A stretch of 64,000 nt of DNA from Dehalococcoidia bacterium (GCA_040766535.1 JAXGQG010000004.1:25936-89935); one strand, 5' to 3'; numbered from the stretch's first letter, positions 5,764-64,000 are shown. Program-made: numbers and translations. Notes: generated by a model not told the origin, from the letters alone.

Positions 5764-5951
5764 GGCGTTCCGTAGCTGAGCCTCCACCGTAGGCCGGGCG
5801 CCAGGCGCTCACTCTCCTGTCGAATTCGGGAGTCACTGCGTTCGCCCCAGAGGCGGGTGCGTGGAACGTGCACTCCAGCATTCGTCGGGATCGTGCGACT
5901 CGATTGGCGGCGCCGTCGTGTGACTGCTTCAGACGGGGTAGTTGTCCCGCG

Positions 5952-7404: not shown

Positions 7405-7416
7405 CGCGTGTGCCGC

Positions 7417-7791: not shown

Positions 7792-8176
7792 GTAGTCCTC
7801 CTTTACGGCGTGAATATCAACGGGCACTCTACCATGGAGGCTCTCTGCTGGCAATACGAACGATGCACCACACGACGGTGAAGTTGCGGGTACTGGGTGA
7901 ACCGTATGGGCATGAGCGTACACGTGGTCCAGGAGGTGAATCGCAGGATTAAATAGTCGGGTCTGGTGTCGGTATCGGATCCTGTGGCGGGGATGCCACA
8001 GGCGACACCAGAGCCCTCCTGCACTCGAAAGTAACAGTGTGCGGTTGTTCTGTCAAACGCCCGGCGCGATTGACGCCATCGATCGCCGGCGAAGGTATGG
8101 TGGACTGGATGTGTCCGCTGCGCCCGTACGCGCACTCTCCCCGGGCAGGCGGTGCCATATGCAACTGCTGTTGCCG

Positions 8177-48074: not shown

Positions 48075-49208
48075 TCACGCCGCGGTGCGCAGGACCGGGT
48101 TATCGCCAGCGGCCTCCGCGGGTGGCGGGAGCTTGATGGGCAACCTGGCCCTCACACGCGTCCCTTCGTTTGGCCGACTCCTGATGGTGAGGTTGCCCTG
48201 AAGTGATGCCACCCTCTCCTTCATGCCAGAGAGCCCGAGGTGTCCGTCCAGCACCGCTCGAGTTGTGGTCGCATGTCCCGGGGAGAAACCGACTCCGTTG
48301 TCGGATACCTCAAGCACGATATGATCCGGGTTGAACAGCAGACTGACCACGGTCTCGGTTGCCTGAGAATGACGTGCGACATTGTGGAGCGCCTCCTGCG
48401 CGATACGGAAAGCCGCGGTCTCCACCGCGTCAGGCAGTCTTCTGGTTTCGCCCCTGGTGACCACGCGTGTGTTGATGCCCGATTCATTCCGCATTCGGAC
48501 GCATAGCCAGTTCACCGCCGGGAGCAGTCCAAGGTTGTCGAGGATGCTGGGTCGCAGATCGTAGCTGAGCCGCCGCAGTTCGTCCGAAAGACGGATACTC
48601 TCATCCCTGATGGCGAACGACTGCGGCTGTATGGAGGCAGGGTCCCAGGGCCCTGCGGTTCCGAGGCTCTCCGCCATGTAGGCGATGCTGAGCAGCCGCT
48701 GCAGCACATCGTCATGAAGTCCCTGAGAGATCCTCTGGCGCTCGCTCTCCTGTGCGGCGAACACTCGCTCGATCTGCATGCGCCGTTCGTTCTCCCGTTC
48801 AATCATGAGTTGCCTGTGCCGTTCGCGCCAGCGCATCTCCAGCAGCACAACCAGGGCTATGAGGAAGGGCACGCTCAAGTTCGCCGCATTGTGGACACTG
48901 GAATCGAGGCCGAGCGAGTACCTGGCGAGGCGGGGGGCGGCCACCGCACAGATCAGCAGCCACGAGGCGATGGCTCCGCTGAGGCGCAGTGTCAGAGTCG
49001 CGTAGACGAAGGGTATGAGGTACAGCACTCCAACCAGGTCGTTCCTCAGTTCGAAGAAGAAGTACTGGGTCAGGCTGAATCTGCTGTCACAGAACTGCCA
49101 GTAGAAGATGGTAATGATGACCACCAGTGCCATGGTCACCCACCAATGCTTGCTTGGCAGAGTCTGCCTCACGTGCTCCTTCAGGCGGGCGGCTGCAGAC
49201 GACGGCAT
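48075..49208 (-). CDS. sensor histidine kinase (HisKA_3 / NarL-partner type) with membrane N-terminal domain
   Basis: Track ORF. ERQRISQGLHDDVLQRL H-box, HNVARHS N-box, DNGVGF and GLSGMKERV G-boxes. Confidence 0.85.
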   Translation of the reverse strand: MPSSAAARLKEHVRQTLPSKHWWVTMALVVIITIFYWQFCDSRFSLTQYFFFELRNDLVGVLYLIPFVYATLTLRLSGAIASWLLICAVAAPRLARYSLGLDSSVHNAANLSVPFLIALVVLLEMRWRERHRQLMIERENERRMQIERVFAAQESERQRISQGLHDDVLQRLLSIAYMAESLGTAGPWDPASIQPQSFAIRDESIRLSDELRRLSYDLRPSILDNLGLLPAVNWLCVRMRNESGINTRVVTRGETRRLPDAVETAAFRIAQEALHNVARHSQATETVVSLLFNPDHIVLEVSDNGVGFSPGHATTTRAVLDGHLGLSGMKERVASLQGNLTIRSRPNEGTRVRARLPIKLPPPAEAAGDNPVLRTAA

Positions 49209-49215
49209 GGATTCC

Positions 49216-49914
49216 CTACTGGAGATCCTGCATCCCGAGGATCCCTAATCGTAACGCGGCTGTGACAGCAGCGGTTCGGCTATCCACTTCAAGTTTCGCG
49301 AACAGCTCCTCAAGATGCCCCTTCACCGTCCTCGTACTCACGCCCAGCCGTTGGGCTATCTCGTTGTTGCTGAGACCCTGAGCAAGTAGCGACAGTACCT
49401 CGAACTCGCGGGTGGTCAGCCGCGGCCCGGCAGCCTCAGGTGACGTATGGGCGCTGGAGATGGCGGAATCGACGACGTGACGTAGAGCCACCGCGCACAG
49501 GTAGATCTCACCTGCGACCACGCGGCGAATGGCTTCCACGATTTCGCCTCCCAGTACATCCTTCGTGAGAAAGCCGCTGGCGCCTCCTTGAAGCATGGAG
49601 CGTACATGCTCCGCATCATCATGAACGGTGAGCGCCAGGACTGCCGTTGTCGGGCATTCGGCCTTGATCTGGCGCACTGCTTCGAGACCGCTGACACCCC
49701 GTAGACCGATGTCCAGGATGACCACACTCGGATGGAGTTCCACCGCAAGGCGTACTGCCTCCTGGCCCTCACCTGTCTCGGCCACCACCTTGAAGTCGCT
49801 TTCTCGATCGAGAACACGCTTCACTGCATCGCGGAACAGCGGGTGGTCGTCCACCAGCATTATTGCTATCGTCGAGTCCGTAGCCCCATTGTATACGGCT
49901 TCGTTCTGACTCAC
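49216..49914 (-). CDS. NarL/FixJ-family response regulator (REC + LuxR HTH)
   Basis: Track ORF 49216..50076; GTG 49914 suggested. IAIMLVDDHPLFRDAV...VVILDIGL...LTTREFEVLSLLAQGLSNNEIAQRLGVSTRTVKGH. Confidence 0.85.
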   Translation of the reverse strand: MSQNEAVYNGATDSTIAIMLVDDHPLFRDAVKRVLDRESDFKVVAETGEGQEAVRLAVELHPSVVILDIGLRGVSGLEAVRQIKAECPTTAVLALTVHDDAEHVRSMLQGGASGFLTKDVLGGEIVEAIRRVVAGEIYLCAVALRHVVDSAISSAHTSPEAAGPRLTTREFEVLSLLAQGLSNNEIAQRLGVSTRTVKGHLEELFAKLEVDSRTAAVTAALRLGILGMQDLQ

Positions 49915-50419
49915 TCTGTGTGTGCTGCGGTTGGCCGCAGTCCTTTCTTCGCTCTCAGTCGGGGGATGTCTGGCGCCGCCAGTATACCGCGTGAGACGCC
50001 TGCAGGTACAAAGTATGGCTCTCCTACACGCGCTGAGCACCTGACTGAGAGCAGAGGCCAAATGGCCCCCGGCCATTGGGTCACCCTGTCAACGGGATGG
50101 CAGACCCTTGAACAGTTTACTCTTCGCCGATACTCTGCGCTTAGTGTCAGGCGCGCCCAGGATTGCCGATGGATGGCGACAGGAGCGGCTTCGTGATGCG
50201 GCAAGGTGGACCTGGACGGGTCTCCCGCTCTTCGGTTGCCTGATGCTGCATGAGCGTGAATCTCGTCGCCTTGCGGTTTGCAGATTACATAAGGGTATGT
50301 CACACTCGAATTCTACCCCGCAACTGTTCGGAGGTCTGCCTATGTAACAGTCGTACGTGCAGTATCCATCTCACAACGCAATAACCTCAAGTGAATATAG
50401 AGAGGAGGTTTGATTTGCC

Positions 50420-51568
50420 ATGAGAAGTGTCTTGCGGATCCTGACCATGGTCGGTGTGGTGAGTGCGCTCGTGCTGGGTTCTGTCGGCTGCGCGCCCGAA
50501 ACCACTCCTACCACTCCCACCACCCCCACGACTCCGACCTCTCCCACCACTCCCACCACCCCCACTACACCGTCCCAGCCGTCCACCCAGACCGTCAAGT
50601 GGGTGCAGGCGACCCCCTGGGTTGCGGCCGAGCTTGGCTTTCAGGGCATAGAACTACGAAATCAGATCCTGAAGGACATCAGCGGCGGCCGGTTCATCAT
50701 TGAGTCGCATCCTTCCGGCGCGTTGATGGGTGCCGAGGACGTGTTCGATGCCGCGCATGACGGCACGATCGATGCCTTCAACGCAACCCTTCACACATTC
50801 ATCGGTAAGATCCCCGCATCCCCGATGTTCGCCGCCATGCCGCTGGGCCTGAAGCGCGATGAGTACCAGGCGTGGTACGACTATGCCGGCGGCAAGGATC
50901 TCCTGATGGAGATGCTTGAGCCCTACAACTTCGGCTATGCGCAGCCGGTTGTCTTCCAGACACCCGAGGGCCTTTGCTGGTCCAACGTGAAGCTTGACAA
51001 CCTCGCCGCGTGGAAGGGTCTCAAGTTCCGCACGAAGGGTATCTGGGCGAACATACTGCAGAATCCTCAGGTGGGCGCGGCTGTGACGACGCTCTCCAGC
51101 TCAGAACTCTACTCCGCACTGGAGCGCGGCATCCTCGATGCGCTGGAGTACTCTACGCCTGGAAGCGACCTGCCCCTCGGCTTCTACGAGGTAACGAAAT
51201 ACCTGATGGTTCCTGGCTTCCATCAGCCGGCCACCGTGCTGTCTGACGTGGTGAACAAGGATTCCTGGAACAAGCTTCCCGCCGATATGAAGGCCATGTA
51301 TGACGCAGCCAACAGGGCGGCCGGCGTGCAGTGGTACGGCAATTACGTACTCGCCGATGCCGAGGCACTGGCCTTCTACGCGTCCCTTCCGTCTCTCGAA
51401 ATCGTCGTCTGCCCCGCGGACCTGCAGAAGACGTTCGCCGGTTTTGCTGATCAGGAGTACGCCAAGAACTCCGCTGCTGATCCCTTCTTCAAGAAGGTGT
51501 ATGACAGCCAGCGTGAATTCAAGGCCAAGTACGACTTCTTCAGCGGCTATCAGTCGATGAACTTCTAA
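50420..51568 (+). CDS. dctP: TRAP transporter substrate-binding protein (DctP family), lipoprotein with Thr/Pro linker
   Basis: Track ORF; RBS GAGAGGAGG. Lipobox LGSVGC. Body GLKFRTKGIWANILQ..GAAVTTLSSSELYSALERGILDALEYSTP. Confidence 0.85.
   Translation: MRSVLRILTMVGVVSALVLGSVGCAPETTPTTPTTPTTPTSPTTPTTPTTPSQPSTQTVKWVQATPWVAAELGFQGIELRNQILKDISGGRFIIESHPSGALMGAEDVFDAAHDGTIDAFNATLHTFIGKIPASPMFAAMPLGLKRDEYQAWYDYAGGKDLLMEMLEPYNFGYAQPVVFQTPEGLCWSNVKLDNLAAWKGLKFRTKGIWANILQNPQVGAAVTTLSSSELYSALERGILDALEYSTPGSDLPLGFYEVTKYLMVPGFHQPATVLSDVVNKDSWNKLPADMKAMYDAANRAAGVQWYGNYVLADAEALAFYASLPSLEIVVCPADLQKTFAGFADQEYAKNSAADPFFKKVYDSQREFKAKYDFFSGYQSMNF
50501..50572 (+). repeat. imperfect 9-nt (ACC ACY CCN) tandem repeat encoding (TTP)n linker
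   Basis: Encodes TTPTTPTTPTTPTSPTTPTTPTTP directly after the lipobox cysteine. Confidence 0.8.
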
Positions 51569-51580
51569 GAGTTGAGAAAC

Positions 51581-51615
51581 GGGCTCTGGCCATGGGCAAA
51601 ACCGGGCCAGAGCCC
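51581..51615 (+). promoter_or_regulatory. stem-loop between dctP and dctQ
   Basis: GGGCTCTGGCC (51581-51591), 13-nt loop, GGCCAGAGCCC (51605-51615): an 11-bp perfect stem. No U tract. Plausibly an mRNA-stability or attenuation element favouring binding-protein excess. Confidence 0.45.
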
Positions 51616-51641
51616 TCCCCTTCTCTAGAGGCAGGTTTGAC

Positions 51642-52178
51642 ATGCAGAATGAAAAAAGTGTGCAGGGTGGCAGTGGGATTCTCTCGTGGATCGACAGAGC
51701 CATATCGTGGTTAGGAGAAGCATCAGGGTTTCTTGTTCTGCCCCTCATCGCGGTAGTCGTGGTTGAGGTCTTCTCCCGGTATGTGCTGCATTCTCCGACC
51801 ATCTGGGCATGGGAGATGAGCCGGTTCTTCGGCGGCTCCATGTTCGTTCTTGCCCTTGGCTACATCTACCTTCGGGACCAGCATGTACGGGTGGACATCC
51901 TGTATAACCGCTGGAGCCCGCGTACTCGCGCCATCATCAATGTGGTGGTAGTCCTCATCATCGTCCTGCCGGTGCTCATCCCCGCGCTTCGTGTCATGTA
52001 CAACACAGCCGCGTTGTCGTGGAGCATAAAGGAAGTCAGCTCGGACAGCGCCTGGCGCGTGCCGATCTACTGGTTCAAGGCCATAATGCCGTTCTCGATG
52101 TTCCTGCTGCTCGTTTCCGTGATCGTCAAGTTCATTCGAGACCTGCGCGTGGTCTTCAAGGGGGAGTCCAATGCTTGA
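51642..52178 (+). CDS. dctQ: TRAP transporter small permease (DctQ family)
   Basis: Track ORF. Four TM segments. Position between the P and M genes. Confidence 0.8.
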   Translation: MQNEKSVQGGSGILSWIDRAISWLGEASGFLVLPLIAVVVVEVFSRYVLHSPTIWAWEMSRFFGGSMFVLALGYIYLRDQHVRVDILYNRWSPRTRAIINVVVVLIIVLPVLIPALRVMYNTAALSWSIKEVSSDSAWRVPIYWFKAIMPFSMFLLLVSVIVKFIRDLRVVFKGESNA

Positions 52179-53511
52179 TTTCACGCCTTCCCCTCAAATG
52201 GTAACCCTCATCATGTTTGGCCTCCTGGTCGTCGGTATCTTCACCGGTTTTCCCCTTGGCTTCGTGATTCTCGGCGTGGCCTTCATCACGGGCCTCCTGT
52301 TCATGGGGCCGACTCGAGTCTATGGCATTGTGGGTGCACACACCTACAAGCTGATGGTGAACTACATTCTCCTCGCGCTTCCTCTGTTCGTGTTCATGGG
52401 CTCGATGATTGGCTCTTCAGGCATGGCTGAACGCTTGTTTAGCACCCTCTATACGATTCTTGGCGGCATGCGTGGTGGACTTGCGTTGACGGTGATCGTA
52501 GTCTCCACCGTGTTTGCCGCCTGCACCGGCGTTATTGCTGCCTCGGTCACGACCATGGGCATCATCGCCATGGCCCCGATGGTTGCCCGGGGGTACGATA
52601 GGTCGCTCTCAGCGGGCGCTGTGGCGGCAGGTGGTACCCTCGGCATCCTCATTCCCCCCAGCATCATGCTGGTTATCTATGGCCCGATGGCCGAGATCTC
52701 GGTTGGCAAGCTGTTTGCCGGAGCCATCTTTCCAGGTCTCCTGCTCTCAGCCTTGTACATCCTATACATCATCGTGTACTGCCGCGTGAAGCCGCATGCC
52801 GGCCCTCCGATTCCACTGGAGGAACGGGAGGCGGTGCCTGCGGCCCGGAAGCTATTCCTTGCCGTTGTGTACATGGTGCCGCCGCTGGCCATCATTTTTG
52901 CGGTTCTCGGGACTATCCTGTTTGGCGTTGCGACGCCGACGGAGGCTGCCGGAATGGGCGCCTTCGCTTCGATTGTCGTGGCAGCAGCCTTCAAGTCCCT
53001 CAACTGGCAGACGCTCAGGAAAGCCATTTCTGAGACGTTGAGAATCACTGCGTTCGCCGGTCTCCTCACTATCGGCGCGGGCGTCTTCGCTGCCATCTTC
53101 CTGTACCTTCGCGGTGGTGAGTTTGTCACCGCGATGGTTACCAACGTGCCTGGAGGCAAATGGGCCAGCCTGCTCATCATCCTGGTAGTTATCTATCTCC
53201 TGGGCATGTTCATCGAATGGATCGGTTCCATCTACATCGTCGTACCGGTCTTCACGCCGATTGGGGCCGCCCTCGGATTCGATCCCGTCTGGTTCGCCAT
53301 CATCATCTGTGTTGCCTACCAGACCGGATTCCTCAGTCCGCCGAACGCGCATGCCATCTTCTACCTCAAAGCGGTCTCGCCGCCGGAGGTGACCCTTGGA
53401 GACATCATTAAGGGTGTTGTGCCGTTCATCGGACTGATTACCATCGGGCTTGTTCTATGCATAGTCTTCCCGAGCATCGTGACGTGGTTGCCCTCGGTGA
53501 CGGTAGGCTAG
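52171..53511 (+). CDS. dctM: TRAP transporter large permease (DctM family)
   Basis: Track ORF, 446 aa, highly hydrophobic. 8-nt overlap with dctQ. Confidence 0.9.
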   Translation: MLDFTPSPQMVTLIMFGLLVVGIFTGFPLGFVILGVAFITGLLFMGPTRVYGIVGAHTYKLMVNYILLALPLFVFMGSMIGSSGMAERLFSTLYTILGGMRGGLALTVIVVSTVFAACTGVIAASVTTMGIIAMAPMVARGYDRSLSAGAVAAGGTLGILIPPSIMLVIYGPMAEISVGKLFAGAIFPGLLLSALYILYIIVYCRVKPHAGPPIPLEEREAVPAARKLFLAVVYMVPPLAIIFAVLGTILFGVATPTEAAGMGAFASIVVAAAFKSLNWQTLRKAISETLRITAFAGLLTIGAGVFAAIFLYLRGGEFVTAMVTNVPGGKWASLLIILVVIYLLGMFIEWIGSIYIVVPVFTPIGAALGFDPVWFAIIICVAYQTGFLSPPNAHAIFYLKAVSPPEVTLGDIIKGVVPFIGLITIGLVLCIVFPSIVTWLPSVTVG

Positions 53512-53547
53512 TAGAGCCCAGGACTATACCTAAGGAGAAGCGAACAC

Positions 53548-54273
53548 ATGCGAGTCAATCAGGATACGTGCATCGGCTGTGGTCAGTGCGTTCTGCAGTG
53601 CACGGTCGGCGCGATCCGCATGAATGATGGAGTTGCACACATCGACAGGGATGAATGCGTCGAGTGCGGCGTCTGCTACCGCTTCAAGATCTGCCCCGTG
53701 GAGGCCATTGAGGAGGAGGAGCTGACCTGGCCACGGCAGGTTCGGGCCGATTTCTCTAATCCCACCACGCTGCACAAGACCACCGGTCTGGCCGGACGCG
53801 GGACCGAGGAGATGAAGACCAACGAGATCACCGGGAGGTTCCAACGCGGCTGGGTCGGACTTGGACTGGAATTCGGACGGCCGGGAATCGGCGCGCGGTT
53901 GCGCGATGTGGACAAGGCCAGCCGCAGGCTTGCCGCCCTGGGTGCCCACTTTGAGCCTCAGAGTCCGGTTACCGTGCTCATGGAAGACGTCAAGACCGGC
54001 AAGCTGCGCGAGGATATTCTCAATGAGAAATGCCTGTCGGCGATCATCGAGTGCGCCTTGCCCATCGAGAAGATCCGTGAAGGGTTGCTGGCTCTTCAGG
54101 AGATCGCCAACGAGGTGGAGACGGTCTTCACTGTGGATTGCATCAATGTGGCAGAGGATGATGAATCCCTGCCGATGGATCCCATTCTTGAGGAGATGGG
54201 CATTCCCCGCTATCCCAATGGCAAGACCAACGTTGGGCTTGGCCGCCCTCTCTTTGCAGGAGATGCCAGATGA
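53548..54273 (+). CDS. cassette gene A1: 2x[4Fe-4S] ferredoxin-domain protein with unassigned roughly 170-aa C-terminal domain
   Basis: Track ORF; RBS AAGGAG. CIGCGQCVLQC and CVECGVCYRFKIC motifs, then TWPRQVRADFSNPT, AGRGTEEMKTNEITG, GLEFGRPGIGARLRDVD, NGKTNVGLGRP. Confidence 0.8.
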   Translation: MRVNQDTCIGCGQCVLQCTVGAIRMNDGVAHIDRDECVECGVCYRFKICPVEAIEEEELTWPRQVRADFSNPTTLHKTTGLAGRGTEEMKTNEITGRFQRGWVGLGLEFGRPGIGARLRDVDKASRRLAALGAHFEPQSPVTVLMEDVKTGKLREDILNEKCLSAIIECALPIEKIREGLLALQEIANEVETVFTVDCINVAEDDESLPMDPILEEMGIPRYPNGKTNVGLGRPLFAGDAR

Positions 54274-54884
54274 CCCATTCGCTTCACAGACGAGGCAGCC
54301 GCGATAGTCTGGTCAAGGACTATCCTGTGCTGTGTATGGTGGCCATGGGCCACAACAATGTTGGCTCCAAGCCCGCACTGCAGGAGTTCTTCCGGATCGC
54401 GAGCCGCCACAACCCCTCCAACATGGGCACGGTGACTGCCAACGTGATCGGGACGCCGCTGGAGGACGTTATTGCAGGCGCCCACAACCTGTCGCAGGCG
54501 GTTTTCTCCAGCAAAGAAGACCTCATCGGCATGCTCAAGGACCTTAAGGAAGCTGATCTCGGAATCTCCATAATCGTGAGCGGACTGGTTGATGTGGTCC
54601 ACGAGTGCTGCCGCGCGGCCGGACTCAAGCGCCACACCGTCGAGTTCTCTCTCGGCATTTGGGGTAAGAAGGAACTGCTGCCAGCCGACGATGTGCTCGA
54701 GGTGACGACCATGTGCGGTCATGGCATGGTCCCTCCCAGGCTTGTGGAGTCGATCGTGGTGGATGTCCGGGAGGGCAAGCTGACGGCCGAGGCGGCCGGC
54801 AGGGCTCTCGCGTCCAAGTGCACCTGCGGCATCTTCAACCCGCTGCGTGCAGCAGAGTTGCTCGATGCGATGGCCCGGAAGTAG
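54270..54884 (+). CDS. cassette gene B1: Cys-rich protein of unknown family (MTHSLHRRGS... / TTMCGHG / CTCGIFNP)
   Basis: Track ORF. ATGA overlap with A1. Intact, with two paralogs downstream. Confidence 0.8.
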   Translation: MTHSLHRRGSRDSLVKDYPVLCMVAMGHNNVGSKPALQEFFRIASRHNPSNMGTVTANVIGTPLEDVIAGAHNLSQAVFSSKEDLIGMLKDLKEADLGISIIVSGLVDVVHECCRAAGLKRHTVEFSLGIWGKKELLPADDVLEVTTMCGHGMVPPRLVESIVVDVREGKLTAEAAGRALASKCTCGIFNPLRAAELLDAMARK

Positions 54885-54985
54885 TACGTATGCGACTGAT
54901 GGCCGTGGTGAGGCGGTACGCCGTCGTCGCCGTAACGGTCATCGTTGCTGATGGTTTCTCATAGTATCAAAGGAGTGGTGAACAT

Positions 54986-55711
54986 ATGCGAGTCAATCAA
55001 GATATGTGCATCGGCTGTGGCCAGTGCGTCCTGCACTGCACGGTCGGTGCTATCAGTCTGAACGATGGTGTGGCTGAGATCGACAGGGATGAGTGCGTCG
55101 AGTGTGGCGTGTGCTACCGGTTCCATGTGTGCCCTGTGGGCGCCATTGAGCAGGAAGAACTCACCTGGCCTCGTGAAGTCAGGTCCACGTTCTCCGATCC
55201 GACCACCGTTCATAAGGCGACGGGCATCGCCGGACGTGGCACTGAGGAGATGAAGACCAACGAGGTCACCGGCAGGTTTCAGCCTGGCTGGATTGGACTT
55301 GGACTGGAGTTCGGACGGCCCGGTATCGGTGCGCGACTCCGTGACGTCGACAAGGCCAGCCAGCGGCTCGCCAGGTTGGGTGCTCATTTCGAGGCCAACA
55401 GCCCGGTCACGATCCTGATGGAAGATGTGAAGACGGGCAAGATTCGCGAGGACGTCCTCGACGAGAAGTGCCTGTCCGCCATCATCGAGTGTGCCCTGCC
55501 GGTCGAGAAGATCCGTGACGGCCTCAAGGCTCTTCAGGAGATAGCCAAGGAAGTTGACACGGTCTTCACGGTCGACTGCATCAACGTAGTGGCGCCGGAC
55601 AACTCCCTGCCGATGGAGCCCATTCTCACGGAAATGGGCATCGCCCGGTATCCCAATGGCAAGACCAATCTGGGACTGGGCCGCCCGGTCTACAAAGGAG
55701 GCGCCAAATGA
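54986..55711 (+). CDS. cassette gene A2 (close paralog of A1)
   Basis: Track ORF; RBS AAGGAG. The first 69 nt differ from A1 at 7 positions. Same motifs as A1. Confidence 0.8.
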   Translation: MRVNQDMCIGCGQCVLHCTVGAISLNDGVAEIDRDECVECGVCYRFHVCPVGAIEQEELTWPREVRSTFSDPTTVHKATGIAGRGTEEMKTNEVTGRFQPGWIGLGLEFGRPGIGARLRDVDKASQRLARLGAHFEANSPVTILMEDVKTGKIREDVLDEKCLSAIIECALPVEKIRDGLKALQEIAKEVDTVFTVDCINVVAPDNSLPMEPILTEMGIARYPNGKTNLGLGRPVYKGGAK

Positions 55712-56328
55712 CCCATACACTACACCGACGTGGAAGCCGCCAGAGTCTCGCCCACGATTTTCCCATGCTGTCTATCAAGGCCGTGGGATTCAATGACGAA
55801 GGTTCTGAGCTCAAGTTGCGGAAGTTCCTGGAAATCGCCAGGCGTCACAATCCTGTCAACATGGGCAGCACTACAGCCAACGTCTTTCAGCAGCCTGTGG
55901 AGCAGGTGCTGCAGGGCGCCGGCAAGGTCTCTCACGCGGTCTTCTCAACTACCGACGATCTCGTCGCGATGATGAAGGACCTCAAGGAGGCCGATCTCGG
56001 CATGTCCGTGGTTGTCAGCGGGTTGGTCGATGTGGTCGACGAATGCTGCCAGAAGGCAGGCATTCAGCGCCATACTGTTGAGTTCTCTCTCGGCATCTGG
56101 GGCAAGACCGAATTGCTTCCTCCGGATGACATCCTTGAGGTGACCACGATGTGCGGCCATGCCATGGTTCCTCCTAAACTCGTTCAGTCCGTTGTCGAGG
56201 ACGTGCGCGCTGGCAAGATGACCGGGGAGGCGGCCGGAAAGGCGCTTGCGCCGCAGTGCACGTGCGGCATTTTCAATCCGGTGCGCGCCGGCGAGCTGGT
56301 GGCGGCCATGGCCGCCAAGAAGAAGTAA
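55708..56328 (+). CDS. cassette gene B2 (paralog of B1)
   Basis: Track ORF. ATGA overlap with A2. MTHTLHRRGS, ECC, TTMCGHA, CTCGIFNP. Confidence 0.8.
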   Translation: MTHTLHRRGSRQSLAHDFPMLSIKAVGFNDEGSELKLRKFLEIARRHNPVNMGSTTANVFQQPVEQVLQGAGKVSHAVFSTTDDLVAMMKDLKEADLGMSVVVSGLVDVVDECCQKAGIQRHTVEFSLGIWGKTELLPPDDILEVTTMCGHAMVPPKLVQSVVEDVRAGKMTGEAAGKALAPQCTCGIFNPVRAGELVAAMAAKKK

Positions 56329-56551
56329 CCGTCCGTTGCTGCCGGCGGCGCTGGTCGCAAACTGGCGCCGCCGGCAGACTGATCTGCAGCGCGTGTGGCC
56401 AGGTGAGATGATGTCGAAGTTGGGTGGTCACCGGGAATCCGTGCCCGCAGACTGGCATGCATGAGGGGGTGGAGGTGGCCATGGTGGTGCGCTCTGTCCT
56501 GCTCCATGCCTGTGATTCCAGGGTGGCAATTCTGTTCCTAGGAGAAACCCG

Positions 56552-57262
56552 ATGAGAATAGATGAGAATCTGTGTATCGCGTGCGGCTCCTGTGTGCCGT
56601 ACTGCCCTATGAAGGCGATCAGTCTCGGTGACGTCGCGGTCATCGACCAGGATGAGTGCGTCGAATGTGGCGTCTGTGCTCGGGCCGCGGTGTGTCCCGT
56701 CGATGCCTTCGTTGACGAACCGGCCTCGTGGCCGCGTTCGGTTCGTTCCGCCTTCTCTAATCCCACGGTTGAACACAAGGAGACCCGTGTGGCCGGCCGT
56801 GGGACCGAGGAGATGAAGACGAATGAAGTCACGGGACTGTTCAAGAGCGGCTGGATCGGAATGGGCTTCGAGTTTGGCCGACCTGGCATCGGCGCCCGTT
56901 TCCGTGACGTGGATTTGGTCGCTCAGGCGCTGGCCCGTCTGGGTGTGGTCTTCGCGGACAACAACCCTGTGACGAAGCTCATGGTGGACAAGAAGACCGG
57001 CAAGATAAGCGATGAGGTTCTTGACCAGAAGGTGATGTCCGCCATCATCGAGTGCATGTTCCCCATCGAGAAGATGAAAGACGTCCTGCGAACCTTCACG
57101 ACACTGGCTCCGAAGTTGCATACGGTCGTCAGCGTGGAGTGCATCAACAAAGTGGAGCCGGATGACTCGCTGCCGATGGATGCGATTCTGAAGGAGATGG
57201 GCATCACGAGACGCATCAATGGTAAGACCAACGTGGGGCTCGGTCGCCCGCTGGCGGCATGA
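56552..57262 (+). CDS. cassette gene A3 (more diverged paralog of A1/A2)
   Basis: Track ORF; RBS AGGAG. CIACGSCVPYC and CVECGVCARAAVC, AGRGTEEMKTNEVTG, FEFGRPGIGARFRDVD, NGKTNVGLGRP. Confidence 0.8.
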   Translation: MRIDENLCIACGSCVPYCPMKAISLGDVAVIDQDECVECGVCARAAVCPVDAFVDEPASWPRSVRSAFSNPTVEHKETRVAGRGTEEMKTNEVTGLFKSGWIGMGFEFGRPGIGARFRDVDLVAQALARLGVVFADNNPVTKLMVDKKTGKISDEVLDQKVMSAIIECMFPIEKMKDVLRTFTTLAPKLHTVVSVECINKVEPDDSLPMDAILKEMGITRRINGKTNVGLGRPLAA

Positions 57263-57354
57263 CGACGCGGGTGCTCGCGGTCGGTTGGGATCTCTCAACC
57301 TGTCACCGGCGACGCGAGGCCTTCGGTCTGGTAGCTTTGCAGGAGGACAATGGA

Positions 57355-57972
57355 ATGACACATACATTGCACAGGCGGGGTTCCGCTGAAAGCCTCTCCA
57401 ACGATTTTCCCATGCTTTCCATCAGGGCCGTCGGCTTCAACGATGAGGGCTCCGATGAGAAGCTTCAGAAATTCATGCGCATCGCCATGCACCACAAGCC
57501 GGTGAATATCGGTGCGGTGAGCCTTGGCAACATGTTCAGTCACGAACCCGAGGAAATCATCTCGAAGGCGCATGGGGTAATGCACGCCGTCTTCGATAAT
57601 CCACAGGCGGTAATCGCGTGTCTGCGTGAACTGAAGAGCGCCGACGTAGGCATGTCTGTGGTGGTGAGCGGCATCCTCGATGAAGTGAACAAGTGCTGTA
57701 AGGATGCCGGCCTCAAGCGCCACACCGTGGAGTTCTCACTTGGTGTGTGGGGTGAGACCGACAGGCTTCCCCCCGAAGAGGTTCTCGAGGTGACCACGAT
57801 GTGTGGTCACGGACTGGTTTCGGCAAGTCTCGTCACCCATATGGTGGAGCAGATACGCTCGGGCGCTCGAACCGCTGAAGATGCGGCGAAGGAGCTGGCA
57901 CGGCAGTGTACGTGTGGCGTCTTCAATCCGGTCAGGGCCGCGAAGCTTCTATCTGCGATGGCCGCTGCCTAG
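57355..57972 (+). CDS. cassette gene B3 (more diverged paralog of B1/B2)
   Basis: Track ORF 57259..57972; ATG 57355 after GCAGGAGGAC gives MTHTLHRRGS, as in B1/B2. KCC, TTMCGHG, CTCGVFNP. Confidence 0.8.
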   Translation: MTHTLHRRGSAESLSNDFPMLSIRAVGFNDEGSDEKLQKFMRIAMHHKPVNIGAVSLGNMFSHEPEEIISKAHGVMHAVFDNPQAVIACLRELKSADVGMSVVVSGILDEVNKCCKDAGLKRHTVEFSLGVWGETDRLPPEEVLEVTTMCGHGLVSASLVTHMVEQIRSGARTAEDAAKELARQCTCGVFNPVRAAKLLSAMAAA

Positions 57973-57982
57973 CGTCCAGCAG

Positions 57983-58990
57983 CTACTTCAGAGAGGCCTT
58001 CAGGTTGCCCGCGGCAAGCCGCGTCAGCAGTTTGAAGGCCTCTTTCGTCGCCCCGGGGTTGGCTATGCCTTTGCCCGCAATATCCATTGCCGTGCCGTGA
58101 GCGGGTGTGGTGATCGGGATGGGAAGTCCCCCACAAACCGTCACTCCCCTGTGGAAACCGAGGAGCTTGGTGGCTATCTGCCCCTGGTCGTGGTACATGG
58201 ACACCACGCCATCGTATCGCTCAACCTTGATGCGCAGGAAAATGGTATCGGCCGGGAATGGCCCGAATGCGGCGATTCCCTCTCTCACCGCATCTTCGAT
58301 AGCAGGGGCAATCTGGGCCTTCTCCTCCGAGCCGAAGAGGCCGCCATCACTTGCGTGTGGGTTCAGTGCAGATACTGCGATTCGCGGAGCCTTGATTCCG
58401 TAGTTCCGGAGAGATCTGTCCAGGAGACGTATGGTCTCAAGCACCCGCGTTCTTGTGATCAGAGACGGAACCTTCGCCAGTGACACGTGTGAACTGACAC
58501 GTGACGTCCAGAGATCGCGCAGGACATTGTGCTCTCCGTAGGACGTGGTCACGCCGAGTTCGTGCGCAAATAGCGCCAGCTCGCTTGGATAGGGTGAGCC
58601 GGCCAGGCGCAGAGCCTCTTTGTTGAAGGGCGCGAAAAGGATGCCATGCAAATTGCCAGCTCTTGCCTGTTCAAGCGCGAATCGTGCGGTGATGAGGGCG
58701 CTCTTGCCTCCCGCGGCACTGACTCTGCCGTGAGTGATTGGCCCAACCTCTGCAGCAGAGAGATGCAGAAACCTGACGCCGGTCTGATTGGGGAGGTCGC
58801 GGATGTCCTCGATGGCGTCCAGTTGAACGCGTGTGCCCGCGATGCGTTGGGCGTCGGCAAGTACGCCGCGATCGCCGATGACGGCCACGTGGACCGACCG
58901 GGCGATGTCCCTGGACGCGAGCAGCCTGGCGACAAGTTCCGGTCCGATGCCTGCGGGGTCTCCGAGCAGTATGGCGATTCTCGGCTTCAT
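57983..58990 (-). CDS. PdxA-family NAD(P)-dependent dehydrogenase (4-hydroxythreonine-4-phosphate dehydrogenase-like)
   Basis: Track ORF. IAILLGDPAGIGPEL...ALNPHASDGGLFG.EE...MYHDQGQIA.K...TTPAHGTAMDIAGKG.ANP. Confidence 0.85.
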   Translation of the reverse strand: MKPRIAILLGDPAGIGPELVARLLASRDIARSVHVAVIGDRGVLADAQRIAGTRVQLDAIEDIRDLPNQTGVRFLHLSAAEVGPITHGRVSAAGGKSALITARFALEQARAGNLHGILFAPFNKEALRLAGSPYPSELALFAHELGVTTSYGEHNVLRDLWTSRVSSHVSLAKVPSLITRTRVLETIRLLDRSLRNYGIKAPRIAVSALNPHASDGGLFGSEEKAQIAPAIEDAVREGIAAFGPFPADTIFLRIKVERYDGVVSMYHDQGQIATKLLGFHRGVTVCGGLPIPITTPAHGTAMDIAGKGIANPGATKEAFKLLTRLAAGNLKASLK

Positions 58991-59167
58991 AGCACTCCTT
59001 GGAGCACGTGATGCCGGCTAGACTAGACGTCTGATTCCCACATGTCAAACCGGTGCTGGCTGAGAACCGGTTGTGGGTGGCGCGAATGTGCAAGCCGTGT
59101 GTCGCGCACTGACTTCCTGTGGTGGGGTGATTGTGGATTGGCCGGCGTGGTGGCTTCGCCGGACAGT

Positions 59168-59620
59168 TCAAGAACGCAGAGTGCGGGCGCCTCGCTCCGT
59201 CAGTCTCCGGGCGAGTGGCCCCATGACCTCGCGCACGCCGTTCAACCGCACCGTTTCCCGCCTCCCTGTCACCATGAGTTCCAGTTCGCGGGCACGGACC
59301 ATTATTCCAAGTAGCAGGAGCGCGGCGCCCGCGACAGGAAATGCGGTGCTTGTGCCGCCGAGCGCGAAGAGGGCGACACCGCAGAGGATGAGCCAGACAT
59401 TGACATGTGTCACTTCTCGCAGTCCTGCGATGCTGCGATACTCAAAGGCATCGGCGGCGCCGTCGCGCAGGATGATGAGACGGGTTGCCGTGGCATACGC
59501 CTCGGCGCCCTTGAGTTCGTAACGAACCTCGACTTCCTCACCCGTCGTCAAGAGCTGTCGTACCGCGGCGGGCAAGGGATGAGCAGCGCTTTCGGAGTTG
59601 GGTGGCGTTGAGGGCGACAT
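59168..59620 (-). CDS. hypothetical protein, bacterial PH-like domain followed by two TM helices (tentative)
   Basis: Track ORF. EEVEVRYELKGAEAYATATRLIILRDG, then hydrophobic WLILCGVALFALGG / AGAALLLLGIMV. Confidence 0.4.
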   Translation of the reverse strand: MSPSTPPNSESAAHPLPAAVRQLLTTGEEVEVRYELKGAEAYATATRLIILRDGAADAFEYRSIAGLREVTHVNVWLILCGVALFALGGTSTAFPVAGAALLLLGIMVRARELELMVTGRRETVRLNGVREVMGPLARRLTERGARTLRS

Positions 59621-60947: not shown

Positions 60948-61607
60948 ATGCCAAGACCACCGAAACTGAGACAGATCGCGGCAGTACCAGCGGTAACGTT
61001 CTTCAAGCCGGCGGGAATGCCGATGAATAGCCTGGAGATGGTGACGCTGGCGCTGGAAGAGGTTGAGGCGATACGGCTTAAGGATGTTGAAGACCTGCAT
61101 CAGGAAGAATGCGCGCAACGGATGGGTGTGTCCCGAGGCACATTCCATCAGATCCTCAAATCGGCTCGTGGCAAGTTGGCCGATGCCATATTGAACGGCA
61201 AGGCGATACGGGTTGAGGGCGGATCGTTTGCCTTCCCGGGTGGGCGTTTCCGCTGTCGACGCGATGGTAGTGAATGGACCCTGCCACCTGGCCCGCTGCC
61301 CGGCCTGTCTTCGGTAACCTGTCCTACATGCAACAGCCACGAAGTGCATCCGGTGCCGCAACCGTGCGGACCGATGCGGAATGCCATGCCCGGACGCTGG
61401 GGACACGGCTGGCAGGGGCCGTGGGGGAGACGCCCCAATTCACCCCAATGGCGGGGGAGACTCCGAGAAGACGAGTCGGAACCAGACGTTGATCAGGGTA
61501 TGTCACAAGTTGAAGCACGTACCGATGAGAACGGGCCACGGTCTGGTATGAGCCTGGATTCACCGGGGTCCCGTGTGCGTGAGCAACAGGAACATGAACT
61601 GGAATAA
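60948..61607 (+). CDS. DUF134 (UPF0251) putative DNA-binding protein with long Cys/Trp/Gly-rich C-terminal extension
   Basis: Track ORF. MPRPPKLRQIAAVPAVTFFKPAGMP...LEEVEAIRLKDVEDLHQEECAQRMGVSRGTFHQILKSARGKLADAILNGKAIRVEGG is the DUF134 pattern. The extension carries C..(x)..CPTC. Confidence 0.8.
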   Translation: MPRPPKLRQIAAVPAVTFFKPAGMPMNSLEMVTLALEEVEAIRLKDVEDLHQEECAQRMGVSRGTFHQILKSARGKLADAILNGKAIRVEGGSFAFPGGRFRCRRDGSEWTLPPGPLPGLSSVTCPTCNSHEVHPVPQPCGPMRNAMPGRWGHGWQGPWGRRPNSPQWRGRLREDESEPDVDQGMSQVEARTDENGPRSGMSLDSPGSRVREQQEHELE

Positions 61608-61627
61608 CGCTGTGAAGGAGGTGCACG

Positions 61628-61870
61628 ATGCCGAGAGGTGATGGCACTGGTCCGATGGGTATGGGCCCGATGACGGGTCGGGCGGCTGGCTTCTGCGCCG
61701 GCTTTGGTACGCCTGGCTACATGAATGCCGGCCCTGGCTGGGGCTATGGCCGTGGATTCGGCCGCGGACTCGGCCCGGGATTTGGCCGCGCTTGGGCAGG
61801 CCGGGGACGCCCCGGTCGTGGCTTCGGCATGCGGGCAGGCTGGTACGGCATGCCGTATGGCCGCTGGTAG
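61628..61870 (+). CDS. DUF5320-type glycine/arginine-rich small protein 1
   Basis: Track ORF. MPRGDGTGPMGMGPMTGRAAGFC, then GFGRG repeats. Confidence 0.75.
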   Translation: MPRGDGTGPMGMGPMTGRAAGFCAGFGTPGYMNAGPGWGYGRGFGRGLGPGFGRAWAGRGRPGRGFGMRAGWYGMPYGRW

Positions 61871-61916
61871 CAGAAGTCGATGAATGACGAATGCAATGCG
61901 GATGGAGGGATGAACT

Positions 61917-62270
61917 ATGCCTGGAGGAGATAGAACAGGACCGATGGGTATGGGCCCGATGACGGGGCGCGGATTGGGCTATTGTGGCGGTCCTGGCGCG
62001 CCTGGCTATGCCAGGGGGGCGTCTGGATGGGGTGGTGGCTTTGGCCGAGGGTTCGGCTGGAGGTTCACTCGCAGGCCGGGGCCGTGTTTCGTGGCTCCTC
62101 GGTGGGCTGCGCCTGCCGGCAGATGGGGAGCGTGGCAGATCAGCCGCGAAGAAGAACTCGAGTACCTGAAGGGACAAGCCGACATGCTCAAAGATGAACT
62201 CGATGCCATACGTGGACGCATCGGTCAGATCGAGGCAGAAGGTGCTTCCGATTCTGGGGAGGAAGAGTGA
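61917..62270 (+). CDS. DUF5320-type small protein 2 with C-terminal coiled coil
   Basis: Track ORF. MPGGDRTGPMGMGPMTGRGLGYC, GFGRGFG, then EELEYLKGQADMLKDELDAIRGRIGQIE. Confidence 0.75.
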   Translation: MPGGDRTGPMGMGPMTGRGLGYCGGPGAPGYARGASGWGGGFGRGFGWRFTRRPGPCFVAPRWAAPAGRWGAWQISREEELEYLKGQADMLKDELDAIRGRIGQIEAEGASDSGEEE

Positions 62271-62821
62271 GAGTCGCCGTATCGGCTGCCGGGCCGACGC
62301 TCGATTCACCGGTTGATCCCCGGTTTGGTCGGTGCACGTATTTCGTGGTGGTGGATACGGACACGATGTCCGCTGAGGCCATCGAGAATGCAAGTGTGGC
62401 GGCAGCCCAGGGCGCAGGGATTGCGACCGCTCAGATGATCGCCGGCAAGGGAGTTGAGGTGGTTCTCACCGGCAACTGTGGACCGAATGCGTATGAGGCA
62501 CTCGCGGCCGCAGGAATCCGGGTCGTCACCGGCGTCACAGGGTCGGTGCGCGATGCCGCCCGTGCGTATGCCAGTGGGCAGATGCAGCCGAGTGACCGGC
62601 CAAACGTGGCCTCGCACCATGGAATGGGGTTGACCCAGGGGCGTGGCATGGGGAGTGGGATGATGCGCAGCGAAACACCTGCGCGGGCCAATTCCTCGAC
62701 CTCACAGCCTGCTACCGCAGTGACCGACTTGCTGCTCGATCTCAAGATGCAACTCGATGCGCTGCGCGAACAGGTTGCCGAGATAAACAACCGTATCGAT
62801 CAACTGCACAAGCAGAACTGA
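62267..62821 (+). CDS. NifB/NifX-type (dinitrogenase FeMo-cofactor-binding fold) protein fused to Gly-rich/coiled-coil tail
   Basis: Track ORF (GTG; GTGA overlap with the previous stop). MRVAVSAAG.....VDPRFGRCTYFVVVD...GAGIATAQMIAGKGVEVVLTGNCGPNAYEALAAAGIRV. Tail GRGMGSGM...DLLLDLKMQLDALREQVAEINNRIDQL. Confidence 0.8.
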   Translation: MRVAVSAAGPTLDSPVDPRFGRCTYFVVVDTDTMSAEAIENASVAAAQGAGIATAQMIAGKGVEVVLTGNCGPNAYEALAAAGIRVVTGVTGSVRDAARAYASGQMQPSDRPNVASHHGMGLTQGRGMGSGMMRSETPARANSSTSQPATAVTDLLLDLKMQLDALREQVAEINNRIDQLHKQN

Positions 62822-62833
62822 TTGGACTGCTCT

Positions 62834-62915
62834 GCGGGCGAGGCCAGCTGTAGGGTGGCCTCGCCCGCACCAGGTACAGTCGCAAACGACGCTGTGCGAG
62901 ACCCATTCGCACAGC
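62834..62915 (+). promoter_or_regulatory. two consecutive perfect stem-loops in the spacer before the zinc-ribbon DUF5320 gene
   Basis: GCGGGCGAGGCC (62834-62845), 11-nt loop, GGCCTCGCCCGC (62857-62868). GCTGTGCGA (62891-62899), 7-nt loop, TCGCACAGC (62907-62915), immediately followed by CTGGGAGGTGTGGAAATG (RBS + start). Confidence 0.5.
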
Positions 62916-62930
62916 CTGGGAGGTGTGGAA

Positions 62931-63155
62931 ATGCCATTCGGAGATGGAACTGGACCTATGGGACAGGGAGCCGGCACTGGTCGTGGACTGGGACGTGGAC
63001 TGGGTCGCGGTCGCATGGCGGGCGACAGGGCTGGAGCGGGGCCGGGGGGCTCATGCGTCTGTCCCGCGTGTGGTGCCCGGGCGCAGCACCAGGTGGGAGT
63101 CCCCTGCAATTCGTTGAAGTGTCCCAACTGCGGGGCGCGGATGACGCGAGCGTAG
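62931..63155 (+). CDS. DUF5320-type small protein 3 with C-terminal zinc ribbon
   Basis: Track ORF 62925..63155; ATG 62931 after GGGAGG. MPFGDGTGPMGQGAGTGRGLGRGLGRG, then CVCPACG...CNSLKCPNCG. Confidence 0.75.
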   Translation: MPFGDGTGPMGQGAGTGRGLGRGLGRGRMAGDRAGAGPGGSCVCPACGARAQHQVGVPCNSLKCPNCGARMTRA

Positions 63156-63158
63156 TTC

Positions 63159-64000
63159 ATGATAGTCTCAATCGCGAGCGGAAAAGGCGGCACAGGCAAG
63201 ACGCTGGTAGCGACCAGCCTTGCGTGTGCCCTGAATGGAACCGTGCCTGTTACATTGCTGGACTGCGATGTGGAAGAGCCGAACGATCACCTGTACATGA
63301 ACGCTCGTCTCATCGCATCCCGGCCCGTGGCGATTCAGGTGCCTTTCGTGGATGAATCGAAGTGTATCCACTGTGGCATGTGTCACGATGTCTGTGAGTT
63401 CAATGCCATCGCGGTGATGGGCTCGGCGGTCCTCGTCTTCAAAGAGCTGTGCCATGGATGTGGTGCGTGCACGCACTTCTGCCCGGTGGGCGCAATCACC
63501 GAAGTGCCTCACGAGATCGGAGTTGTGGAGGAGGGCGATGCCGGTGGCATTTGTTTCATCGATGGCGTACTCACCATCGGCCAGCCCATGGCGCCGCCCA
63601 TAATCCGCCAGGTCAAACAGCATACAGGTACAGAGGGCATCACCATCATAGACGCCTCTCCAGGGACCTCGTGCCCGGTGGTTGAGGCGGTGAAAGGGAG
63701 CGACTTCTGCATTCTTGTCACTGAACCGACTCCGTTCGGGTTGAACGACCTTCGGCTGGCCGTGGAGACGATGCGGGAGCTTGGCCTGCCGCACGGCGCC
63801 ATCATCAACAGGGTTGGTGTCGGCGACGCGCGAACCGAGGAATACTGCGCACAGGAAGGCATCCCTGTGCTGATGACTATCCCGTTGGATGAAAGAATCG
63901 CACGAACCTATTCGCGGGGAATTCCCCTCGTTGAGGCCCTTCCGGAATACCGCCAACGGTTTCTGAGCCTTTATCAGCGGGTCACGGAGTTGGTCAATGA
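63159..64000 (+). CDS. MinD/ParA/Mrp-type P-loop ATPase with inserted 2x[4Fe-4S] ferredoxin domain; the 3' end runs off the window
   Basis: Not in the track (open at the window end). From ATG 63159: MIVSIASGKGGTGKTLVATSLA (deviant Walker A), CIHCGMCHDVCEFNAI and CHGCGACTHFCPVGAI, IIDASPGTSCPV, ILVTEPTPFGLNDL. Confidence 0.8.
   Translation, partial: MIVSIASGKGGTGKTLVATSLACALNGTVPVTLLDCDVEEPNDHLYMNARLIASRPVAIQVPFVDESKCIHCGMCHDVCEFNAIAVMGSAVLVFKELCHGCGACTHFCPVGAITEVPHEIGVVEEGDAGGICFIDGVLTIGQPMAPPIIRQVKQHTGTEGITIIDASPGTSCPVVEAVKGSDFCILVTEPTPFGLNDLRLAVETMRELGLPHGAIINRVGVGDARTEEYCAQEGIPVLMTIPLDERIARTYSRGIPLVEALPEYRQRFLSLYQRVTELVN

Follow-up and report, generated by a model that had tools for sequence, protein, structure and literature searches.

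In a 64,000-nucleotide stretch of a Dehalococcoidia bacterium genome (GCA_040766535.1, JAXGQG010000004.1:25936-89935; 'the window' hereafter means this whole stretch), positions 53548-57972 carry three consecutive copies of a two-gene cassette, A1-B1, A2-B2 and A3-B3, directly behind the dctPQM genes of a tripartite ATP-independent periplasmic (TRAP) transporter. Protein A begins with a ferredoxin domain, and protein B bears a small set of invariant cysteines. By comparative evidence the A-B family is real, widespread among anaerobes and without a known family or solved-structure relative. The pair is probably a redox enzyme with B as its catalytic end, and its fuller description as a new ferredoxin- or NAD(P)H-linked iron-sulphur (Fe-S) oxidoreductase acting on small oxo and hydroxy carboxylates stands, in our judgement, at an even chance. 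A first-pass annotation of the window had suggested an uncharacterised heteromeric Fe-S enzyme family; this was largely right in kind, but its cysteine count was imprecise and the context it proposed was too narrow.

The association of A with B was apparent from both sides. Among the 97 B genes with enough upstream sequence, A lay directly upstream in 82 (85%), with a gap of -4 to +18 nt in 79 of these 82; the other B genes followed another B (8 cases, giving A-B-B) or were solitary (7 cases). An independent metagenome scan seeded from A found B following in 62 of 67 A genes (93%). A mirror-tree comparison of the A C-terminal domain with B gave r = 0.887 over 68 adjacent pairs, as against 0.53 when the B partners were swapped within a locus and about 0 with random pairing. 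Furthermore, the two occur as a natural B-A fusion in P0386, a protein of 476 aa from Chloroflexota, where B takes up residues 1-187 and a complete A residues 215-470. Since adjacency from both sides, correlated divergence and the fusion agree, we conclude that A and B are obligate partners and that a physical A:B complex is very likely. The heteromeric unit proposed at first reading is thereby strongly indicated, and the linkage it expected across genomes was near-universal, if not complete in view of the solitary B genes. Solitary B genes stand directly 5' of trpE-G-D-C in several Dehalococcoidales (loci L019, L024, L033, L034, L037 and L055), and the L019 locus has a truncated A at the contig edge.

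Relatives of B number more than 2380 at 90% clustering and form 838 clusters at 50% identity, 232 of these at E<=1e-30, while relatives of the A C-terminal domain exceed 5800. Among species-representative genomes the hosts are mostly Dehalococcoidia, joined by Anaerolineae, Desulfobacteraceae and other Deltaproteobacteria and, in the Firmicutes, by Peptococcaceae, Desulfosporosinus, Gracilibacter and Negativicutes. Several A-B loci per genome, in differing contexts, are common, and some genomes hold five or more divergent copies. The pair was not described in any paper that a full-text literature search brought up, and the 'mini-CooS' literature was the sole related item. In the databases, A is labelled 'PreA subunit' (Joint Genome Institute, JGI, because of Fer4_21) or '4Fe-4S binding protein' (RefSeq), and B is a 'hypothetical protein' (RefSeq).

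Residues 2-58 of A form a 2x[4Fe-4S] ferredoxin domain, matched by Fer4 at 39-43 bits (cut-off 21.1) and by Fer4_21 at 38 bits (cut-off 35), and its cysteines C8, C11, C14, C18, C37, C40, C43 and C49 were invariant in 71 sequences. In the AlphaFold2 model of A1 (mean predicted local distance difference test, pLDDT, 83.8), only residues ~1-57 were aligned by Foldseek, with 9g03_E (target template-modelling score, TM, 0.90; root-mean-square deviation 1.4) and 1fdn (TM 0.84), that is, with the clostridial ferredoxin fold. The cluster motifs read at the start of A thus belong to a canonical eight-cysteine ferredoxin domain that is matched by both profile and fold. The C-terminal domain of ~180 aa has no invariant cysteine at all; it is rich in invariant Gly, Arg, Lys, Thr and Glu residues, and its invariant segments are WPRxxR, GRGTEEMKTN, GRPG and a C-terminal NGKxNxGLG, which were poorly ordered or coil in the A-only model. 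When 71 homologues were scanned singly down to E 10, this domain matched no Pfam or NCBIfam family, and neither single-sequence nor profile searches with it found anything significant among PDB sequences. The A model itself had no PDB match at E<=0.001 in Foldseek, the best E of 1.5e-3 coming from the ferredoxin domain, the only part to align. The inability to assign the domain at first reading was therefore borne out in Pfam, NCBIfam, PDB-sequence and PDB-fold searches alike.

Protein B, represented by B1, gave a confident AlphaFold2 model (pLDDT 91.8, predicted TM score 0.89), whose helical C-terminal half bears the cysteine motifs. Conservation was scored over 135 representatives, mutually <=50% identical. 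C149-G150-H151 was present in all 135, C184 and C186 of a CxC motif as well as N190 in 134, R7 in 131, and H6 and H122 in 127 each, whereas, of the CC pair, C113 occurred in just 50 and C114 in just 78 of the 136 sequences aligned. Thus, the five cysteines originally taken as invariant are so only among close relatives, and three of them (C149, C184 and C186), together with H151, hold family-wide. The N-terminus M-[T/S]-H is conserved too (in fuller form M-[T/S]-H-x-L-H-R-x-G), and in almost every representative the match to the family begins with residue 1. In the model, the CGH (149-151) and CxC (184-186) loops flank an antiparallel helix pair, so the two could plausibly meet in space.

The search for relatives of B was equally negative: 77 homologues scanned singly down to E 10 hit no Pfam or NCBIfam family (best noise HAD_2, E 0.0034), PDB sequence and profile searches with B or with the A C-terminal domain reached at best a nitroreductase at E 0.71 and a glycerate kinase at E 0.081, and Foldseek found no PDB match for the B model at E<=0.001 (best E 0.02, TM 0.3). 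The view that B matches nothing known held at each of these levels. A nitroreductase-like FMN protein, considered for the N-terminal HRRGS, was rejected (best PDB profile 8cqu, E 0.71), with no nitroreductase among the top 50 Foldseek matches. Among the Fe-S hydro-lyases, class I fumarase/tartrate dehydratase, serine dehydratase, IlvD/Edd and aconitase gave no Pfam or NCBIfam profile match to A or B, and none of their folds appeared among the Foldseek matches of either protein. The models of both B and the A C-terminal domain contain ferredoxin-like beta-alpha-beta units; a duplicated heterodimer was rejected because hhalign found no homology between A and B.

The genomic surroundings of A-B were compiled in a census of about 80 loci. 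In Dehalococcoidia the typical order is HpcH/HpaI aldolase - (MoaD/ThiS-like protein) - tungsten-type aldehyde ferredoxin oxidoreductase (AFOR) - A - B - (B) - (A - B), continuing 3' with a LarA-type nickel-pincer 2-hydroxyacid racemase, an AP_endonuc_2 barrel, GlcD, GlcD, GlcF and glycerate kinase; some of these loci additionally hold glyoxylate carboligase, Lut-like proteins, or a divergent set of DUF1537 kinase, PdxA and zinc-dependent alcohol dehydrogenase. A TRAP-type context, to which the window belongs, reads dctPQM - A - B (1-3 pairs) - (PdxA). In Firmicutes we found a CooF-like Fer4_11 protein, a 514-aa protein resembling Prismane and carbon monoxide dehydrogenase (CODH; TIGR01702, 78 bits), A, B, a PadH-like FAD/NAD oxidoreductase (FNOR) and a zinc-dependent alcohol dehydrogenase (L068, L070, L071, L075, L080-L083, L086 and L173, for example L173 7113-12896). 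The CODH-like protein possibly belongs to the uncharacterised 'mini-CooS'/clade G group (PMC3328121, PMC8776680). Deltaproteobacteria show (AFOR) - thiamine diphosphate (ThDP) enzyme - A - B - two family-III CoA-transferases or, elsewhere, A-B adjoining TctABC; their ThDP neighbours could be assigned neither to oxalyl-CoA decarboxylase nor to 2-hydroxyacyl-CoA lyase nor to acetolactate synthase. By count, the LarA-type racemase was the commonest neighbour (23 loci), GlcDEF occurred in 14 loci and PdxA in 7; AFOR lay directly upstream of A in 18 loci and FNOR directly downstream of B in 7 Firmicute loci. The TRAP linkage suggested by the window is hence a recurrent one, but it is one of at least four contexts beside the AFOR/LarA/glycolate-oxidase, CooF/CODH-like/FNOR and ThDP-enzyme/CoA-transferase types.

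The strongest functional evidence lies in an electron-input chain that is repeatedly supplied to A-B and appears to end at B. In three genomes (L012, L015 and L017; A at ~5865-7988), one of them directly after dctPQM, A is a 707-aa variant in which Fer4_20 and Pyr_redox_2, a GltD/NfnB-like NAD(P)H module, are inserted between the ferredoxin and C-terminal domains. In another locus (L091) B is fused to the CooF-like Fer4_11, in the operon Fer4_11 - FNOR - A - B::Fer4_11. A third (L031, 1823-6301) encodes, directly 5' of A-B, a 1493-aa protein that combines several FAD domains and a GltD-like part with a Fer4 at its C-terminus; this protein and the GltD-inserted A are reminiscent in architecture of flavin-based electron-bifurcating complexes. 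Such recurrent coupling of A-B to NAD(P)H-flavin and polyferredoxin modules, by fusion or as neighbours, points to redox catalysis and had not been anticipated at first reading.

A link to small carboxylates is suggested by transporters and enzymes together. The importers beside A-B are of three kinds, TRAP in Chloroflexota, TRAP with a DcuS/CitA-type sensor in Desulfosporosinus lacus (where a Firmicute-type A-B operon adjoins dctPQM and the DcuS/CitA-type sensor kinase) and TctABC in Deltaproteobacteria. Nearby enzymes include the LarA-type racemase, GlcDEF, glyoxylate carboligase, glycerate kinase and Lut-like proteins; taken with the importers, such neighbours of lactate, glycolate, glyoxylate, glycerate and C4 sugar-acid metabolism would point to small oxo and hydroxy acids as the substrate class, an assignment that we offer tentatively and rate somewhat below an even chance. 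In the window, DctP has its nearest solved relatives in a ketoacid-binding protein (7ug8, 6.5e-34), the Thermus lactate-binding protein 2zzv and 2hzk, which we take to be TakP. The D. lacus DctP is only 23% identical to that of the window and belongs to another subfamily. Inferring the substrate class from DctP thus works for the window (ketoacid/lactate subfamily) but does not carry over to other contexts. The proposal that the copies were amplified for related substrates imported by TRAP is plausible for the window operon and too narrow for the family, in which TRAP is one context among several.

On these grounds we propose a working model. A would be the wiring subunit, its 2x[4Fe-4S] domain exchanging electrons with a soluble ferredoxin or a dedicated partner (NAD(P)H-flavin module, CooF-like polyferredoxin, tungsten aldehyde oxidoreductase or CODH-like enzyme), and its C-terminal domain would dock onto B. 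In B, the putative catalytic subunit, the C149-G-H151 and C184-x-C186 loops would coordinate a metal centre of Cys3(His) type. Its likeliest form is an Fe-S cluster in which one coordination position is open or has a ligand other than cysteine. The B N-terminus and the A loops GRGTEEMKTN, GRPG and NGKxNxGLG might complete an anion-binding active site at the A:B interface, so that electrons would pass through the two A clusters to the Cys3His centre of B, where a small carboxylate would be reduced or oxidised. The window operon could then provide three old, specialised A:B isoenzymes for 2-oxo and 2-hydroxy carboxylates imported by TRAP, with the PdxA-type dehydrogenase beside B3 perhaps serving the same pathway. 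The diversification of paralogues, seen in multi-copy genomes and in the three conserved orthologues, would be as expected for catalysts. A bolder version, which we hold to be rather unlikely, is that B harbours a novel catalytic centre, in which Cys3His ligates an Fe-S or Fe-S-heterometal site while the N-terminus of B and the A loops supply the rest, and that A:B represents a new class of ferredoxin- or NAD(P)H-dependent reductases serving fermentative anaerobes as electron sinks on small hydroxy and oxo acids, for example by CoA-independent reductive dehydroxylation. This would explain the position of A-B behind AFOR, CODH-like and ThDP enzymes and near carboxylate importers.

In many anoxic sediments, aquifers and digesters, Dehalococcoidia and their uncultured Chloroflexota relatives predominate, and how carbon and electrons flow in their fermentation is poorly understood. 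A-B is abundant in these organisms, at the junction of low-potential oxidising enzymes, NAD(P)H and carboxylate import, and is currently annotated as just 'ferredoxin' and 'hypothetical protein', so an assigned reaction would fill a recurrent gap in metabolic reconstructions. Since B and the A C-terminal domain resemble no solved structure, the pair could also reveal a new Fe-S active-site architecture, and it is directly testable because a cultured carrier exists, D. lacus DSM 15449 (B is WP_073032059.1).

Several points weigh against an enzyme of this kind. The evidence is comparative throughout, and a zinc site of the Cys3His type, with a purely structural role, would give the same pattern in B. 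In seven cases B occurs alone, and most of these adjoin trpEGDC. The B-A fusion sits amid housekeeping genes and the L091 operon contains electron carriers only, from which it follows that some A-B members may use an internal or inorganic substrate and not an imported acid. The binding proteins vary by context, as the different DctP subfamily of D. lacus illustrates, so a single substrate for the family is not to be expected. Finally, a position right behind an AFOR, a CODH-like or a ThDP enzyme would fit an electron acceptor or adaptor equally well. Such an adaptor is the serious rival: A-B would be dedicated to electron transfer between one of these enzymes and NAD(P)+ through FNOR or GltD-like modules, and B would hold an unusual redox centre that has no organic substrate. 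We regard it as unlikely, despite the location of A directly downstream of three unrelated low-potential oxidising enzymes, the fused or adjoining FNOR and GltD-like modules and the composition of L091, where A-B has only carriers for company. TRAP-A-B operons that contain no partner enzyme, the window included, are common; a tandem triplication kept as three orthologous lineages, like five or more divergent copies in one genome, would be rare for adaptors; and the many invariant Arg, Lys and His residues, with the strict B N-terminus, resemble a ligand-binding site.

Three further explanations were weighed. A-B might be a non-redox hydro-lyase, namely a hydroxy-acid dehydratase whose three-cysteine cluster acts as a Lewis acid in analogy to serine and tartrate dehydratases or IlvD, the ferredoxin domain merely keeping the cluster reduced or repaired. 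The number of invariant cysteines, exactly three, and the hydroxy-acid and sugar-acid neighbours (DUF1537 kinase, PdxA, HpcH aldolase and glycerate kinase) would suit it, but neither sequence nor fold resembles any known Fe-S dehydratase, the eight ferredoxin cysteines of A are invariant, and three independent fusions (GltD-like in A, B::Fer4_11 and B-A) imply stoichiometric electron flow, which makes this account improbable. The prevalence of LarA among the neighbours, together with the frequent AFOR and CODH-like proteins, could instead indicate a reductive activase or maturation factor for the nickel-pincer, tungsten and Ni/Fe enzymes, respectively. This is very improbable, as the window and many TRAP-type loci have no such metalloenzyme beside A-B (the LarA-like gene of the window is 50 kb away), the B-A fusion stands alone with no client nearby, and A-B carries no ATPase or metallochaperone signature. 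That the B site is structural zinc only and A-B a redox-sensing or regulatory module, for which Cys3His as a common zinc ligand set could be cited, strikes us as highly improbable: A-B lacks domains for DNA binding or signalling, has its genes coupled in translation within catabolic operons, shows enzyme-like conservation and diversifies as cassettes.

Read as an Fe-S oxidoreductase, A-B appears to follow a known modular design with catalytic parts that have no known relatives. Like HdrC/HdrB, GlcF and LutA/LutB, which serve heterodisulfide reduction and glycolate or lactate oxidation, it combines a 2x[4Fe-4S] module and an extension that would dock a small cysteine-bearing catalytic partner, and GlcDEF and Lut-like genes (the latter in L045 and L046) share its neighbourhoods. 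Unlike HdrB, GlcF and LutA, however, B lacks a CCG domain (motif CXnCCGXmCXXC; no PF02754 match at E<=10 in 77 B sequences; CC 113/114 not conserved), has three invariant cysteines and a histidine, and has an unmatched fold, while the A C-terminal domain is unrelated to the HdrC and LutB extensions. The 707-aa A, with Fer4, Fer4_20 and Pyr_redox_2 before the catalytic part, is wired in the GltD/NfnB/PreT manner, as in PreT/PreA; in contrast to dihydropyrimidine dehydrogenase and glutamate synthase, there is no flavin barrel like that of dihydroorotate dehydrogenase or GltB, and the A C-terminal domain and B together form the acceptor end. IspH and IspG, with a site-differentiated [4Fe-4S] cluster, use three protein cysteines plus one non-cysteine ligand and receive external low-potential electrons from ferredoxin or flavodoxin; their likeness to B is in ligand count only. 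In 4-hydroxybutyryl-CoA dehydratase the cluster is ligated by three cysteines and one histidine. Neither this enzyme nor IspH or IspG is related to A-B in sequence or fold, but these site-differentiated enzymes are plausible models for how A-B might act reductively on hydroxylated acids. The CDGSH (mitoNEET-type) [2Fe-2S] domain has the same set of three cysteines and one histidine as B; it was rejected for B, since its motif, C-X-C-X2-(S/T)-X3-P-X-C-D-G-(S/A/T)-H, runs from CxC to CDG(S/A/T)H within 16 residues, whereas B has the reverse order with a 32-residue spacer from C-G-H to C-x-C, and no profile matched. DUF362 (PF04015), the NCBI name of the A homologue P0143, also combines a Fer4 segment with an unassigned alpha/beta domain, but it was rejected for A as none of 71 A homologues matched it at E<=10. 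A-B may thus work like HdrBC/GlcF/Lut, GltD/PreT-fed, IspH or CDGSH systems, by analogy, while belonging to none of them.

The locus in the window is laid out as follows.

48075..49208, minus strand: sensor histidine kinase (HisKA_3 / HATPase_c by Pfam on the identical contig L087), divergent from the operon
49216..50076, minus strand: NarL/GerE-type response regulator (Response_reg and GerE), adjoining the operon in L001 and L011 too
50420..51568, plus strand: dctP, TRAP solute-binding protein (Pfam DctP, 92.3 bits), with a Pro/Thr-rich linker after a signal/lipobox-like segment
51642..52178, plus strand: dctQ, small TRAP membrane subunit (Pfam DctQ, 86 bits)
52171..53511, plus strand: dctM, large TRAP membrane subunit (Pfam DctM, 264.8 bits)
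53548..54273, plus strand: A1, 241 aa, Fer4 families, AAGGAG ribosome-binding site
54270..54884, plus strand: B1, 204 aa, M-T-H N-terminus and CGH...CxC site
54986..55711, plus strand: A2, 241 aa, 81% amino acid identity to A1
55708..56328, plus strand: B2, 206 aa, 67% amino acid identity to B1
56339..56377, plus strand: perfect 13-bp G+C hairpin right after the B2 stop, no U-tract
56552..57262, plus strand: A3, 236 aa, 59-63% identity to A1 and A2, TAGGAG ribosome-binding site
57355..57972, plus strand: B3, 205 aa from ATG 57355, AGGAGG 8 nt upstream
57983..58990, minus strand: PdxA-family dehydrogenase, convergent, 10 nt between its end and the B3 stop

All three TRAP components are present, each above its Pfam cut-off, and the dctM stop (53511) is 36 nt from the A1 start. 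The six A and B genes are intact on the plus strand, co-directional with dctPQM as first described, and the ORF coordinates reproduced the reported protein lengths and the ATGA overlaps that couple A1 to B1 (54270-54273) and A2 to B2 (55708-55711). A good Shine-Dalgarno sequence precedes each of A1, A2 and A3. The reported 92-nt gap between A3 and B3 is correct provided that B3 begins at ATG 57355. An alternative start at ATG 57259, used in the public gene calls of L087, would overlap the A3 stop as ATGA and give a 237-aa product; it is probably a mis-annotation and ATG 57355 the real start, as the 32 extra residues would precede the invariant N-terminus of the family and ATG 57355 has a Shine-Dalgarno sequence of its own.

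The three copies are old. A1 and A2 differ at 7 positions in their first 69 nt, which had been taken as a sign of close relationship at the DNA level; this holds at the start of A, but over the entire cassette the DNA identity of copies 1 and 2 is only 74% (81% for A and 67% for B in amino acids), so they are not especially close. Copy 3 is more diverged, as had been noted, with 53-63% protein identity to the other two. In a neighbour-joining tree every A and B copy grouped with the corresponding orthologues from L001, a 167-kb metagenome contig from JGI, and L011, a Chloroflexota metagenome-assembled genome, both of which match the window in arrangement (two-component system, including the histidine kinase, TRAP and three A-B pairs); the first two copies are sisters, the third splitting off earlier. 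Since each copy has its own orthologue in both, the comparison indicates at least two ancient duplications of the whole cassette, before the split from these two related lineages. The tree thus upholds the two or more rounds postulated originally and places them early. The ratio of nonsynonymous to synonymous substitution rates (dN/dS) was 0.02-0.10 in comparisons with orthologues and 0.11-0.25 among the paralogues, dS being close to saturation, and values in this range argue that all six genes are under strong purifying selection.

The hairpin lies within the 223-nt gap between B2 and A3 and has arms CTGCCGGCGGCGC and GCGCCGCCGGCAG separated by a 13-nt loop. It is a candidate processing, stabilising or attenuating element and may separate or stabilise the transcripts of pairs 1-2 and of pair 3. 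No riboswitch or RNA leader was matched by Rfam across 49900-59300, and promoter and terminator scans gave results not above those for shuffled sequence. At its N-terminus (50420-50600), DctP has a signal/lipobox-like segment ending in LGSVGC and then a long Pro/Thr repeat, PTTPTTPTTPTSPTTPTTPTTPS, which suggests that the protein is lipid-anchored and tethered, as expected for a monoderm Chloroflexota cell. The PdxA-family gene matched PF04166 at 284.9 bits, a family-level match, and its closest PDB entries are 2hi1 and 6e85; assignment as a PdxA or PdxA2 equivalog was rejected, the best NCBIfam score of 260 bits lying below the cut-offs of 290-583. A homologue of the DUF1537 kinase, the criterion for a tetronate pathway, was found nowhere in the 64-kb window.

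Elsewhere in the window, two adjoining RraA-like aldolase/decarboxylase genes (655-1500 and 1497-2162, plus strand) and a LarA-like gene (2247-3530, minus strand; 29% identical to the LarA neighbours of A-B in other genomes) represent families that recur beside A-B elsewhere and here lie 50 kb from it. Downstream, at 60948-64000 (L087 16633-20254, and also in L001), we observed a conserved cluster with a DUF134 regulator, two Gly/Pro/Met-rich DUF5320 paralogues, a NifX/NifB-like Nitro_FeMo-Co protein and CbiA/ParA-type ATPases with inserted Fer4 domains, which is a recurrent gene set of anaerobes.

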